Source of the DNA: Escherichia phage damhaus
Reading direction: 5' to 3' (one strand)
DNA length: 51,154 bases
Sequence record: NC_049827.1
Shown here: piece by piece, positions 27,399 to 43,365 of the stretch
Numbering within the stretch: the first letter of the stretch is position 1
How the letters are laid out: the number at the start of each line of letters is the position of its first letter
Translations under genes and position numbers: made by a program
Notes under the pieces: generated by a model
Seen by the model: the letters and a program-made list of their open reading frames with translations, nothing else
Told to the model about the DNA's origin: nothing
Database searches by the model: none

Positions 27399-27614
27399 AT
27401 GAAAGATTTTTTAAACGCTGCAACTTCCGGCACTGGCGGCGCGTCAATCACTGGCGCGGTAACTGGTCAAACAACGATTGCAATAGCCAGCTTCGTTTTG
27501 ATGGCTGCATTTGGTATGTGGGGCGCTTATCTTCGTTGGCGTGATAGTAAGGCGCTACGTGACGCGCTTGAATGCGGTGATATTAAGAAGGCTATTGAAA
27601 TCAGGGGTAAATAA
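27399..27614 (+). CDS. holin (probable pinholin)
   Basis: 71 aa, single hydrophobic segment, charged C-terminus, immediately upstream of endolysin. Confidence 0.6.
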
Positions 27615-28102
27615 TGAGCATAAAACAAAGAGTGACCGCTGCGGCTTTTGGCGTTGCTCTTGCTCTTACTTCTCCATTACTGGAGGAAATAGAAGGAGTA
27701 AAATATAAGCCGTACAAAGATATTGCTGGAATATGGACGGTTTGCGCCGGAATAACTGGACCTGACGTAATACCAGGTAAGACGTACACACAGAGAGAGT
27801 GCGATGCGCTACTGGCAAAGCATATCAAGATCGCAAAGGATGAAGTTGATAAGCGCGTGAAGGTTGATATTCCTGATACAATGCGCGCGGCAATGTATTC
27901 ATTCACGTATAATGCTGGCACTGGTGCTTTTAGAAATTCAACCATGCTTAAGCTGATTAATAAAGGCCGTTACATGGAAGCGTGCGATCAGTTATGGCGA
28001 TGGACCAAATACACCAATCCAAAAACAGGAAAGAAAGAAACGTCTAAAGGACTGCGCAACCGCCGCGCCGTGGAATTTAAATATTGCATTAAGGATCTGT
28101 AA
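27614..28102 (+). CDS. SAR endolysin (T4-lysozyme-like muramidase)
   Basis: Gly/Ala-rich N-terminal signal-anchor-like segment; E-x8-D-x5-T catalytic spacing. Confidence 0.75.
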
Positions 28103-28104
28103 TT

Positions 28105-28503
28105 ATGAGAAAGTTATCAGTAATCGCGATCGCTGTTATCTTGTCTGGATGTTCAAGCGTTACGCCACTGACCGGATTGATAGGAAGCAAGCCTGAGATA
28201 ACAGCACAGGCAGGAGCGGAGAACGTAAAACAGACCGTCGGACTGACAGCAAAACAGGACGCCAGCACAAAACAGGATACGACAATTAAAGAGTCGAAAG
28301 TTGACACTGTTGATACTTCAAACAAAAAGGAGATCAAAACGTCAACCATTCAGGCCAATACCATCAAGGCTGATAAAATCCAGGTCGTGCAGGGTGAGCA
28401 AGGCAAGTGGTACGATCCTATAATATATTGCGCGGCAATTTTTAGTGGTCTTTTGTCAATGCTTTACTTTTCCTGCCGAAAGGGCAACAAAAAGGAGGCT
28501 TAA
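28105..28503 (+). CDS. unimolecular spanin (u-spanin, T1 gp11-like)
   Basis: 132 aa with N-terminal lipoprotein signal (LSGC) and C-terminal transmembrane helix. Confidence 0.7.
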   Translation: MRKLSVIAIAVILSGCSSVTPLTGLIGSKPEITAQAGAENVKQTVGLTAKQDASTKQDTTIKESKVDTVDTSNKKEIKTSTIQANTIKADKIQVVQGEQGKWYDPIIYCAAIFSGLLSMLYFSCRKGNKKEA

Positions 28504-28518
28504 CGCCTCCTTTGTTTT
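28492..28518 (+). terminator. rho-independent terminator after lysis cassette
   Basis: GGAGGC-TTAAC-GCCTCC hairpin followed by TTTGTTTT. Confidence 0.6.
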
Positions 28519-31581: not shown

Positions 31582-31636
31582 CGTTTATTTCTCCTTTCGT
31601 TTCGGTGAAGTGATTATGCCAGGATTTTACACCTGG

Positions 31637-31658
31637 CTTTTAACAAAAAGTGCTATTT
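31637..31658 (-). promoter_or_regulatory. conserved intergenic box copy
   Basis: minus strand AAATAGCACTTTTTGTTAAAA overlapping the TAG stop of the methyltransferase gene; followed by GCCAGG...CCTGGC hairpin and CATAAT. Confidence 0.7.
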
Positions 31659-32363
31659 TGCGTTAGCTTCAAAGACTGCGCGTGCAAAACCGCGCGGGGT
31701 GAGAGAGCGGATCATCTTTGTGCGAGATGATTTTCCGCCAGTTTTGGCCCAGCCTGGATTATCTTTATCGTCCTCTTTCGGCAGTATTAAAGCGCGCGGA
31801 GGAATAACAAAGCCGTTGCCAGTCCAAAGACATGTTTTCTTAAAGTAGCGATCCCGCGCAGGAATAATATCAGGGAAGTCGGGATGTTTATCATCTTCCG
31901 GCAGATAGCCAGCGTAATCGCACGGATGGAACGTATAATCAGGCTTACGCCATAACGTTGACAGCTTGCCTACAGGATTCTCTATCATGTAAGGAACACC
32001 GAAATAATCAGCGATATGCGCCGCTATTTTGCAAGTGTCGGCGGCTTCATCCTGGAATTTTGGATTATCAATTCTCTTTTTAGCCCAATGGCGAGATCCG
32101 CTATTTGCAAGGTCAGTGCATGGAGGGAACGCCATAATAAAATCAGGCTTACCCCAATTTTCAAGTTTTGCGGTATATTTGAATAGATCATCAATCCACA
32201 CATTAACGTAAAAAATATTATCGTGGATTATGCGCACTGAGTGGTAATCACCGTGATCTGCATCATCGTAATTAAAGCAAATGCATTTATATCCAGCATT
32301 AGCCCAATCTTTAACGGCTTTACCAGATCCATCAAACAAAGAGAAAATTAAACCCTTATACAT
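31653..32363 (-). CDS. putative DNA (cytosine-5)-methyltransferase-like protein (short, orphan)
   Basis: 236 aa with FDGSG (motif I-like), PPC (motif IV-like PC dipeptide) and IENP (ENV-like); GAGGTGA RBS. Confidence 0.5.
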   Translation of the reverse strand: MYKGLIFSLFDGSGKAVKDWANAGYKCICFNYDDADHGDYHSVRIIHDNIFYVNVWIDDLFKYTAKLENWGKPDFIMAFPPCTDLANSGSRHWAKKRIDNPKFQDEAADTCKIAAHIADYFGVPYMIENPVGKLSTLWRKPDYTFHPCDYAGYLPEDDKHPDFPDIIPARDRYFKKTCLWTGNGFVIPPRALILPKEDDKDNPGWAKTGGKSSRTKMIRSLTPRGFARAVFEANAK

Positions 32364-32372
32364 TTCATCACC

Positions 32373-32597
32373 TCAAAACGGAAAGCATCGCGGGCAGTTA
32401 GGATCGAAGTTGCAGCCGCAATCATTGACAATCATTGTTGGATCTGCAAATGCAGCGCCGCATTCATGGTCCATATCCATTTCACCCAACGCATCATCAA
32501 GCGTCCTGATTTTATATGCGACTTCAAGCGCGGCCTCTTTATTCAGTCCGGCATCTTCTGCTTTTTGCAGTCGCTCAAAAAATCCGTCCTGACTCAT
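32373..32597 (-). CDS. small Cys-rich protein (possible zinc-binding)
   Basis: 74 aa; C-terminal HECG...CGCNFDPNCPRC cluster; AAGGAG RBS. Confidence 0.55.
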   Translation of the reverse strand: MSQDGFFERLQKAEDAGLNKEAALEVAYKIRTLDDALGEMDMDHECGAAFADPTMIVNDCGCNFDPNCPRCFPF

Positions 32598-32695
32598 TTA
32601 ATAAACTCCTTAATAACAGTAAGAAGAATTGCAAGCCAAAGCAAACCAACAAGGCCAATCATCACGACAAATAAAATATCAAGAAATTTCATCAT
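32594..32695 (-). CDS. putative 33-aa hydrophobic micro-protein
   Basis: Below track cutoff; MMKFLDILFVVMIGLVGLLWLAILLTVIKEFIK; AAAGGTGA RBS; stop overlaps downstream start. Confidence 0.4.
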   Translation of the reverse strand: MMKFLDILFVVMIGLVGLLWLAILLTVIKEFIK

Positions 32696-32742
32696 TATTA
32701 TCACCTTTATTTAAAGGGAGGCGGAAACCTCCCATTGATTAA

Positions 32743-32970
32743 TCATACAGCCTTCCAGCTTTCAATAAACATGCTGTTTTCTTCCAGCAGTTTAATCAAT
32801 TCTTCGCGCGTGTATTTGCGGATTTTACTACCTGGATGTGAGCCAACAACAAACACACCTTTACCACTCGTGATTGTTAACTGGTTGATTCCGCAAGATT
32901 TATCCATCTTAATGGCGACGCGGTGATGTGCATCAACAGTGTGCATGATGTTAGTGACTTTAGCTTTCAT
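32743..32970 (-). CDS. hypothetical protein
   Basis: Start at Met22 of track ORF (GAGGA RBS, TATAAT and a degenerate box upstream). Confidence 0.5.
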   Translation of the reverse strand: MKAKVTNIMHTVDAHHRVAIKMDKSCGINQLTITSGKGVFVVGSHPGSKIRKYTREELIKLLEENSMFIESWKAV

Positions 32971-33022
32971 TATGCGATCCTCATTATATTTGGTGTGGTA
33001 ACTATACAAGGTTTGATAAATA

Positions 33023-33043
33023 TTGTTTAGCAATTCGTGCTAT
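33023..33043 (-). promoter_or_regulatory. conserved intergenic box, variant copy
   Basis: minus strand ATAGCACGAATTGCTAAACAA, like the variant at 39967; followed by TATAGT and TATAAT. Confidence 0.5.
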
Positions 33044-33144
33044 CAGTTGAAATAGCTATGGCGCTTTGCTCGCTTGCCGTCTCCGCCATAATGATCATTT
33101 GCAACAGCTACCATCCAGGCATTATGGAGTATTATTAGCTTCAT

Positions 33145-33426
33145 CTAATTAATACCAACAACGTTAAAACTCACAGCTTTTGTTGCGCTAAATACATACG
33201 CTTCAACAGCCTCACCAAATACACGAATTTTTCCATAACCGTACTGCGCATTCATATTGCGCCAAACCGTCCTGTTAGAACAGAACGCGTTACCAGTCTT
33301 GATAAGATTATCCATCTCTTTTCTTAGGTCATGATAATCAAGCCAGAATCTATAAGCGCGTTGTTTAATGAGTTGCGCCTTTATTGTTTCGATTGCGCTA
33401 TTGAAATCATTCTTTTCGTATGCCAT
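33145..33426 (-). CDS. hypothetical protein
   Basis: 93-aa ORF with GGAGA RBS, translationally coupled to upstream gene. Confidence 0.55.
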   Translation of the reverse strand: MAYEKNDFNSAIETIKAQLIKQRAYRFWLDYHDLRKEMDNLIKTGNAFCSNRTVWRNMNAQYGYGKIRVFGEAVEAYVFSATKAVSFNVVGIN

Positions 33427-34729: not shown

Positions 34730-34790
34730 TGCTATCTCCTGATTGGTATCTCGTTTCGATGAGATAACTATACCAGGTTATTCCGATCTT

Positions 34791-34812
34791 GTTTTAACAA
34801 AAAGTGCTATTT
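34791..34812 (-). promoter_or_regulatory. conserved intergenic box copy at head of minus-strand block
   Basis: minus strand AAATAGCACTTTTTGTTAAAAC followed by TATAGT and the CATCGAAACGAGAT leader. Confidence 0.7.
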
Positions 34813-35345
34813 CTCAACTGGCGATTATTCCATCTATTCCATTAATCAGGAATAACAGGAATAACTCATTCGAGATCACCTGGATTGTGAGATCTTGAGT
34901 TTGATCAATTTTAATCAGGTGATTAACTTTTTGTGTGGAGGGGATAGAGAAACGCGGTCCTCTTGCGTCCTTTCCGGCAATCCTGGCGCGCGCATCTGTT
35001 ATCTTCTGTTATCGCTGTTATGCGTGTTATTCCGGCGTGGAATCGCATAACAAAAAATAACAAGAGAAATCCATATAACATACTAAAAAATAAGGATTAT
35101 TTATTTATATGTATCTATAAATTACTATCTGTTGTGCGTGTTATGTGGTCATATTGATGCCTGATGTATTTTTGGTGATTGTATGTGGTTGTGTGTTGGC
35201 AGGTATGTATATATGGGGCGGTGGCGTATCCGCGCATTTTTAGATAACACGCAAAAACAACATTGATTTATAAGAAAAAAAACACAAATCCTGTTGTGTT
35301 CTGAAAAGACAACATAGGAAAACCGCCAATAACAATAAAAAACAG

Positions 35346-35375
35346 TTGACACACCAGGTGACGGTAAATGATAAT
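35346..35375 (+). promoter_or_regulatory. sigma70 promoter (TTGACA-N18-GATAAT)
   Basis: consensus -35 and near-consensus -10 about 30 nt upstream of the first plus-strand early gene. Confidence 0.65.
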
Positions 35376-35405
35376 GCAGCCACTGAATCACGAGGGGGAT
35401 AAAGC

Positions 35406-39001: not shown

Positions 39002-39187
39002 ATGATCTATGCGCTTGTATTTTTAGTGATTTTCTTTTATATTTCAGGATTATTTATCTTCCGCGCATTGGTTAAAGCGTGTGATTGCACTGATAAAGAT
39101 CAGCCTATTGTTCTGATTTTCTGGTTTGTGTGGTTTTGGGTGGCGCTTTACCAGATTGTGCGGGATGAAAGCGGCTTTAAGTGGTGA
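39002..39187 (+). CDS. small membrane protein
   Basis: 61 aa with two hydrophobic segments; AGAGGAG RBS. Confidence 0.5.
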   Translation: MIYALVFLVIFFYISGLFIFRALVKACDCTDKDQPIVLIFWFVWFWVALYQIVRDESGFKW

Positions 39188-43131: not shown

Positions 43132-43365
43132 ATGTTGAACTTAATTTCTGCTTTTGTTATTGGTTTTGTTTTTGCTGTAATTATTCTGTTTGTCGCATCG
43201 GAAAAGATTTGCAAATTTCTTGCTAAGAACGGGAAGTTTGCAAGCGTGACATGGAATAACAAGATGCATCGATGGGATGTTCGCGGTCACTATCTGACGA
43301 TTGGTAGCAAAATCCATCAGCACCTGAAGAATCAAGAAGATGAAAAAGTAAAATACAAGTATTGA
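43132..43365 (+). CDS. small membrane protein
   Basis: 77 aa with N-terminal transmembrane helix; AGGGAAG RBS. Confidence 0.55.
   Translation: MLNLISAFVIGFVFAVIILFVASEKICKFLAKNGKFASVTWNNKMHRWDVRGHYLTIGSKIHQHLKNQEDEKVKYKY

Follow-up and report, generated by a model that had tools for sequence, protein, structure and literature searches.

The bacterial inner-membrane regulators AcrZ, MgtS, MgrB, and PmrR are 30 to 50 amino acids (aa) long and consist of one helix that binds larger membrane proteins. The type I toxins TisB, Ldr, and Fst resemble the phage micro-protein described here in size (33 to 41 aa), in their single very hydrophobic helix, and in their short charged ends. T4 Imm and HK97 gp15 are phage membrane proteins of superinfection exclusion. 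Further phage-made exclusion proteins of this kind are P22 SieA (PMC10883804) and the Cor-like proteins of Drexlerviridae (PMC8594841), and the known Drexlerviridae exclusion genes adjoin the receptor-binding locus downstream of gpJ (PMC8594841). Here, we describe a 33-codon open reading frame (the micro-ORF) on the minus strand of Escherichia phage damhaus, sequence record NC_049827.1, whose 51,154 nucleotides (nt) are together called the window. The window is the genome of a T1-like siphovirus (Drexlerviridae, Tempevirinae, Hanrivervirus).

Judging from sequence comparison, the micro-ORF is probably a translated, lineage-specific accessory gene of Tempevirinae that encodes a 33-aa bitopic inner-membrane micro-protein. 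We put the probability of this reading at roughly 0.7, a figure that weighs mainly the claim that the gene is real. That it is a real gene for a membrane helix seems to us very probable. As small accessory phage genes go, it is ordinary, of a known general kind, and not surprising in itself.

The micro-ORF, its translation signals, and its predicted helix

The preliminary description of this DNA, made from the letters alone, proposed a minus-strand ATGATG start that opens a 33-codon ORF behind a ribosome-binding site. All of these elements are present on the minus-strand reading, as follows.

32594..32695, minus strand: coding sequence of the micro-ORF, 33 codons plus TGA; peptide MMKFLDILFVVMIGLVGLLWLAILLTVIKEFIK
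32701..32708, minus strand: Shine-Dalgarno (SD) site of the micro-ORF, AAAGGTGA, 5 nt before the first ATG
32612..32677, minus strand: hydrophobic membrane-spanning core, residues 7 to 28 (ILFVVMIGLVGLLWLAILLTVI), from Kyte-Doolittle hydropathy and T at codon position 2
32606..32611, minus strand: AAGGAG, codons K29-E30, which also serves the 74-aa gene downstream as SD site, 8 nt ahead of that gene's ATG
32594..32597, minus strand: ATGA stop/start overlap of the micro-ORF and the 74-aa gene

The two ATG codons begin at 32695, and the TGA occupies 32596..32594. A mechanical ORF list gives the micro-ORF as a 36-aa, GTG-started frame at 32594..32704. The GTG of this version lies inside the SD site and has no SD of its own ahead, so the ATG is the better call. 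An SD-like G-rich motif, such as GGTGA or GAGGTGG, is kept 5 to 9 nt upstream of the start in all variants despite sequence turnover.

At its other end, the micro-ORF is physically tied to the next gene. Its TGA shares bases with the ATG of the 74-aa gene (32597..32595), as had been proposed, and this arrangement implies that the two may be coupled by termination-reinitiation. Further, the last five codons of the micro-ORF are overprinted on the ribosome-binding region of the 74-aa gene, since K29 and E30 are encoded by its AAGGAG and the codons F-I-K make up the spacer between this motif and the ATG. K29 is found in 43 and E30 in 37 of 44 family members. Four 41-aa variants (P0015, P0016, P0027, and P0028) end in KEFMKEFMK, a tandem 12-nt duplication of AAGGAGTTTATG, which places a second copy of the downstream SD and spacer inside the micro-ORF.

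The opposite strand also carries an 82-aa ORF (32466-32714, plus strand) that lies opposite the micro-ORF and the beginning of the 74-aa gene. This antisense frame, open over the micro-ORF span in Hanrivervirus and interrupted in Warwickvirus, probably arises as a side effect of sense codons rich in NTN.

The earlier view of the product as a single-pass hydrophobic peptide is borne out. The best 19-residue Kyte-Doolittle mean is 3.03, and AlphaFold2, run with the family alignment, predicts one continuous helix from residue 2 to residue 32 at a predicted local distance difference test (pLDDT) score of 93. Forms from Warwickvirus carry a charge of -1 at the N terminus and +1 at the C terminus, which weakly favors a predicted N-out/C-in topology.

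Conservation and coding evidence

The preliminary description held that a real gene should be conserved in relatives, and it is. A 147-nt query running from the hairpin upstream of the micro-ORF to its stop codon matched 62 phage records, all over the full length and all T1-like genomes, in which the ORF is syntenic and open. The frame is open and the same in Hanrivervirus and Warwickvirus, with the Warwickvirus peptides at 45 to 48% identity. A tblastn search of phages with the 33-aa peptide returned near-identical copies only, at an E value of about 2, and was too insensitive; synteny was therefore used instead. Family members lie between genes of PHROG 4344 and PHROG 9323 with the ATGA overlap and have a single hydrophobic helix with an N-terminal K/D and a C-terminal K-x-x-x-K/R; the window peptide shows all of these properties. 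Records MG065638-MG065687 in GenBank include 20 unannotated "Campylobacter phage" entries, with C. jejuni as host, that are T1-like Drexlerviridae genomes and carry the micro-ORF region at 74 to 81% identity; the host is odd for coliphage-like genomes.

The micro-ORF is not new to databases. Its position is annotated as a 37-aa "hypothetical protein" in pSf-1 (gp23, AGI61406.1) and in Bas07 (bas07_0056, QXV80731.1), whereas aaroes, G29-2, and tonnikala have the ORF, but their RefSeq/GenBank records annotate nothing in the gap. Both annotated proteins are orthologues of the window's, with the same flanking genes, SD, ATGA overlap, and hydrophobic architecture; they differ in their length of 37 aa and in a peptide identity of 73 to 76%. 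The window, aaroes, and SFP17 have 33 aa instead of 37 through a 12-nt in-frame deletion and a G-to-W change, and among the 62 records this shorter form is confined to three, namely, aaroes (GenBank and RefSeq accessions) and SFP17.

Wider protein searches gave the same picture of a narrow family. A variant profile search of 5.8 billion proteins recovered 37 clusters (90% identity), all at E values of 1e-6 or below, almost all of 33 to 41 aa and most on contigs of about 50 kb; all come from T1-like genomes, and none carries a functional name. A called protein identical to the window peptide (P0035) occurs on 5 public contigs and matches the family profile at E = 9e-11. An exhaustive HMMER search over 1.84 billion 50%-identity representatives found 6 clusters, all of them these phage peptides, and no relatives outside the family. 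By these sequence searches, the micro-protein family appears narrow and lineage-specific.

Several properties indicate that the frame is read. It is stop-free in all 11 distinct orthologous nucleotide sequences, in which the other two sense frames contain 1 to 7 stops. The nucleotide T occupies codon positions 1, 2, and 3 in 6, 23, and 19 of the 33 codons (chi-square P = 7e-5), and this phase-specific enrichment rules out a uniformly T-rich spacer. All length changes are multiples of three: the 12-nt deletion of the 33-aa form, the 12-nt duplication, 3 additional nt in Warwickvirus, and a 120-nt insertion. The last of these, present in two independent samples (metagenome contigs ERZ1034973 and SRR7658665; loci L032, 1827-2048, and L033, 984-1205), lies behind the same SD and ATG and adds a second hydrophobic helix, MKHESDIPILIFLIAVILVCCGLALIFCLPLTSSMYCGAR, yielding a 73-aa protein (P0037).

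The pattern of amino acid replacement points the same way, as do ratios of nonsynonymous to synonymous substitution rates (dN/dS) below 1 in divergent pairs (0.3 to 0.6). Over 26 core columns in 44 distinct peptides, only one of at least 52 replacement events gave a polar or charged residue (an N), whereas random single-nucleotide nonsynonymous changes would be expected to give polar outcomes in 17 to 23% of cases (transition/transversion ratios of 1 to 8; P = 2e-5 to 6e-4). K3, D6, G17, and K29 are invariant or nearly so, as are a V and an A within the four residues missing from the 33-aa form. Residue identity thus appears barely constrained and hydrophobic composition constrained. Selection would seem to keep an uninterrupted hydrophobic helix with an N-terminal K/D and a C-terminal K-x-x-x-K/R, and hardly the exact residues.

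A number of observations weigh against this reading. Nei-Gojobori dN/dS values, 0.3 to 0.6 in the divergent pairs, come close to 1 in others, a range of 0.3 to 1.0 to be set against 0.01 to 0.18 for both flanking genes over the same pairs, except one nearly identical pair. Conservation along the helix has no significant 100-degree periodicity (permutation p = 0.31), and for that reason there is no positive evidence for a specific packing face. Conservation of the C-terminal tail is confounded by constraint at the RNA level, because the K-E codons are the AAGGAG SD of the downstream gene. The micro-ORF is absent from the genus Henuseptimavirus. No expression data of any kind for T1-like phages were found in the literature, and the peptide has no homology to any characterized protein, so that its function can only be inferred. 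Finally, hydrophobic small ORFs readily arise in AT-rich sequence (PMC11188072). The same survey of enterobacterial intergenic micro-ORFs describes their peptides as mainly hydrophobic, partly as an AT-rich by-product, and reports that membrane-domain formation appears selected (PMC11188072).

The slot, its hairpin, and the surrounding operon

The micro-ORF lies in a slot between two genes without an assigned function, behind a hairpin. The features outside the micro-ORF are as follows.

32743..32970, minus strand: upstream 75-aa gene, ending ...ESWKAV*, with its stop at 32745..32743; PHROG 4344, function unassigned
32716..32733, minus strand: GC-rich hairpin GGGAGG-TTTCCG-CCTCCC, 9 nt past the upstream gene's stop codon; predicted folding free energy (dG), -12.6 kcal/mol
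32373..32597, minus strand: gene downstream, 74 aa, four invariant cysteines (CxC-x5-CxxC); PHROG 9323, function unassigned
27399..28503, plus strand: lysis cassette, comprising a holin (phrog_2877, 27399..27614), an endolysin (27614..28102), and an Rz-like spanin (28105..28503)

To compare the slot across phages, we anchored 28 related loci on the 74-aa gene and sorted the space up to the upstream gene into three types. Type a loci hold the micro-protein family, and all of them have the ATGA overlap. Type b loci, found in Klebsiella phages of the genus Peekayseptimavirus, hold a hydrophobic ORF of 40 aa unrelated to that family, MMNSVEKLIKILIAVFIFLDCLLIGGMAFLLFDEIWRSLL, which has an SD of its own (GGAGGG) and an equivalent stop/start overlap. 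Type c loci, in Henuseptimavirus such as Bas10, have no ORF and consist of just the hairpin, an SD, and the anchor gene. The absence from Henuseptimavirus makes the micro-ORF dispensable.

The type b ORF is annotated in Klebsiella phage RCIP0096 as RCIP0096_00050 and has a counterpart in P-K7R. Like the window's, it encodes a single hydrophobic helix in the same slot, has a GC hairpin and an SD ahead of it, and overlaps the start of the orthologous Cys-rich gene with its stop codon. It differs from the window's in the acidic and aromatic residues of its C terminus (FDEIWRSLL) and, in some members, in a midhelix D. Homology between types a and b was considered and rejected (hhalign probability, 2.3%), and the exhaustive search did not recover type b. 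The type b ORFs lie at 828-950 in loci L021-L024, L026, L027, and L030, the slot corresponding to 32594-32715 of the window; in L027, the stop has mutated from TGA to TTA and the frame runs on.

One reading of these states, which we regard as speculative and rather unlikely, is that the gap between the hairpin and the Cys-rich gene is a hotspot in Tempevirinae. Unrelated single-helix micro-proteins would have been acquired or born de novo there at least twice, each overprinting its neighbor's ribosome-binding site and diversifying fast through conflict at the membrane. Two candidate functions would go with this reading, the neutralization of a membrane-bound defense effector and the exclusion of competing T1-like phages at DNA entry.

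The hairpin that had been noted before the micro-ORF is present, with a different division of stem and loop. In place of GGGAGG-TTTCCGC-CTCCC, the sequence folds as a 6-bp stem with five G-C pairs (GGGAGG, 32733..32728, and CCTCCC, 32721..32716) around the 6-nt loop TTTCCG, and it extends 2 nt past the end of the interval assigned to the micro-ORF in the preliminary description. Its assignment to the micro-ORF does not hold, because a GC hairpin occupies the same position after the upstream gene in 26 of the 28 loci. It is kept in all three slot states, ORF-less loci included, with differing stems (GGGAGG, GGCGGC, GGGCGG, GGCGGG, and GCGGG) and dG values of -10 to -18 kcal/mol. Found irrespective of the micro-ORF, the hairpin is therefore a feature of the upstream gene's end.

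The hairpin has the GC-rich stem-loop of an intrinsic terminator. It fails the terminator consensus of a U-tract with at least 5 T in 8 bases: after the stem only TTT follows before the sequence runs on (TTTAAATA), relatives have 3 or 4 T, and a consensus scan does not call it. TTTAAAT separates the hairpin from the SD, and a promoter scan found none between the hairpin and the micro-ORF, where there is no room for one before the SD. We infer that the hairpin is read through and is either a leaky (weak) terminator or a 3'-end or RNA-stability element. Only three perfect GC-rich hairpins, this one included, occur in the minus-strand operon. The second (31618-31637) follows the Dcm methylase and matches a terminator annotated in G29-2. 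The third (28491-28513), with a 9-bp stem and A and T runs on both sides, lies where the operon and the lysis cassette converge and is likely a bidirectional terminator.

In the curated Bas07 record, the micro-ORF lies within a codirectional run of about 18 genes that starts at a divergent intergenic region and contains small hypothetical genes; a Dcm-like methyltransferase and a putative helicase come after them. Downstream of the micro-ORF, the window likewise encodes this methyltransferase (phrog_757) and this helicase (phrog_2373). From this gene content, the label "early operon" that the preliminary description had attached is plausible; a literature search found nothing on transcription timing, ribosome profiling, or small membrane proteins in the T1 family that bears on the micro-ORF. 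The 1.9-kb neighborhood is 95% identical to that of Escherichia phage aaroes and 92 to 93% identical to those of slyngel, pSf-1, and JakobBernoulli/Bas07. No copy of the region was found among E. coli chromosomes or plasmids, so the micro-ORF belongs to neither a prophage nor a plasmid.

The divergent intergenic region that heads the operon (34730-35405) contains a near-consensus sigma-70 promoter (TTGACA-18-GATAAT, 35346..35375) facing the plus-strand genes, and a promoter scan found no clear minus-strand promoter there. A full-length counterpart of bas07_0066 is seemingly missing from the window. Two further small ORFs on the plus strand look real: a 61-aa ORF with two hydrophobic segments and a GAGGAG SD (39002-39187, phrog_9755) and a 77-aa ORF with an N-terminal hydrophobic helix (43132-43365, phrog_5976).

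The cysteines of the 74-aa protein are C60, C62, C68, and C71, and its C-terminal RCFPF is invariant. The protein is very strongly conserved and may be zinc-binding. Its family is confined to T1-like phages, where all members are "hypothetical," and its AlphaFold2 model is of low confidence (pLDDT, 59); neither the family annotations nor the model of this coupled gene gave a functional lead for the micro-ORF. In pSf-1 (locus L003, KC710998.1, 2359-3242), the gene is a frameshifted 82-aa version ending ...CPDAFRFEVMKCIKV, and the methylase ORF is shortened. Around position 1500 of a 2019SD1-like contig (L028), the gene is frameshifted at its start. Both frameshifts could be sequencing errors or real pseudogenes.

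Possible functions and comparison with known systems

Database searches with the micro-protein returned no function. Neither type a nor type b belongs to a significant PHROG or Pfam family, holins and type I toxins included; the best subthreshold matches, phrog_33409 (E = 0.018) and NCE101 (E = 0.22), were obtained for the pSf-1 variant only. A sequence search of the PDB gave 0 matches at E values up to 10.

In the reading that we favor, the micro-ORF would be transcribed by read-through of the hairpin, because no room exists for a promoter between hairpin and SD, within the long minus-strand operon of small genes, Dcm methylase, and helicase. It would then be translated and coupled to the 74-aa gene by termination-reinitiation. 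The peptide, being too short to engage cotranslational targeting, would insert posttranslationally into the inner membrane and act inside the bilayer, where it may pack against or perturb a larger membrane component. Candidate targets are a host inner-membrane protein, a membrane-bound defense effector, and the DNA entry route of superinfecting relatives. The micro-protein would be dispensable for the core lytic cycle; weak residue constraint fits an accessory role that may be conflict-related or mildly beneficial, as do the absence of the gene from one sister genus and the unrelated helix that takes its place in another. If the gene is real, a specific modulator of a membrane protein or an exclusion factor is possible, with the odds tilted toward a generic membrane-perturbing peptide or no important role.

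The best-surviving alternative, still an unlikely one, is a pore-forming peptide like the type I toxins that partly depolarizes or permeabilizes the inner membrane for host shutdown without a specific partner. Weak residue constraint combined with strong constraint on hydrophobicity would fit such lipid-directed action, as would the absence of a conserved interaction face. However, the core has no polar or charged residues with which to line a pore, and there is no Pfam toxin match at E values up to 1 (Hok/Gef, Ldr, TisB, Ibs, and others). Similarly, Rfam gave no antitoxin-RNA or other match at the locus among known families, which a novel RNA would escape; over 32200..33200, the best hit, ssnA, scored 15 bits against a gathering score of 37, and nothing was credible. 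The gene also sits in a polycistronic operon, coupled to its neighbor, and not in an independently regulated toxin locus.

It is improbable that the micro-ORF is solely a coupling leader that delivers ribosomes to the start of the 74-aa gene, or opens its ribosome-binding site, with the peptide an irrelevant by-product. The ATGA overlap is what such a leader would show, and C-terminal codons that double as the downstream SD and spacer, dN/dS values up to about 1 (5 to 30 times those of the neighbors), and the lack of a conserved helix face agree with it. Yet the peptide has not drifted freely, as the single polar replacement against an expected 17 to 23% attests. The 74-aa gene has a strong AAGGAG of its own, 8 nt from its ATG, and manages without any leader in Henuseptimavirus and the other type c loci, where its SD comes right after the hairpin. 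Moreover, the 120-nt in-frame insertion adds a hydrophobic helix and not random sequence, and the unrelated ORF in the same slot is likewise a membrane helix.

Very improbable is the idea that there is no gene at all and that one frame just happens to be open in a T-rich spacer separating the hairpin from the 74-aa gene: the ORF is passed over by most annotation pipelines, hydrophobic ORFs are a default product of AT-rich sequence (PMC11188072), and the antisense frame is likewise open in Hanrivervirus, but T enrichment follows the phase (P = 7e-5), every indel is in frame, polar replacements are avoided, the open frame and SD are retained over two genera at 45 to 50% peptide identity, and the antisense frame is broken in Warwickvirus. 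Equally remote is the holin-like modulator put forward in the preliminary description, or an antiholin or other lysis-timing factor. Being a small single-pass membrane peptide of a lytic phage would suit that role, but a complete lysis cassette, whose holin matches phrog_2877 at 1e-35, lies about 4 kb away on the opposite strand (as in Bas07), there is no PHROG lysis or Pfam holin match, the C-terminal tail is just 5 residues (KEFIK) and no charged hydrophilic domain, and Henuseptimavirus lacks the gene while having the same lysis system.

The accessory membrane micro-protein that we favor amounts to a modest annotation gain, one real small gene of T1-like phages skipped by most pipelines. It also provides a worked example of a 33-codon ORF validated by in-frame indels, phase-specific composition, and avoidance of polar residues even though its dN/dS is near neutral, and of a micro-protein C terminus that doubles as the ribosome-binding site of the next gene. 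Presence, absence, and replacement in the slot among sister genera supply natural controls (aaroes or Bas07 versus Bas10). Should it prove to be an antidefense or exclusion factor, few known ones would be as small; nothing here shows such a role.

Measured against described systems, the micro-protein shares size, hydrophobicity, and expected membrane targeting with the type I toxins (TisB, Ldr, Hok/Gef, Ibs, and Fst) but differs from them in having no Pfam match or antisense-RNA family and in lying in a polycistronic phage operon. With the phage superinfection-exclusion proteins, which act on incoming phage, it would share an envelope or inner-membrane location, and fast evolution would fit such conflict; those proteins are, in contrast, much larger and without sequence similarity to it, and its place in the methylase/helicase operon, away from the receptor-binding locus, is not that of the Cor-like genes. 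AcrZ, MgtS, MgrB, and PmrR likewise have no sequence similarity to the micro-protein, which differs further in being phage encoded and in having no conserved interaction face that we could detect. In size, in the one membrane-spanning helix, and in the lack of an enzymatic domain, however, these regulators are like it, and they serve as our favored working model.

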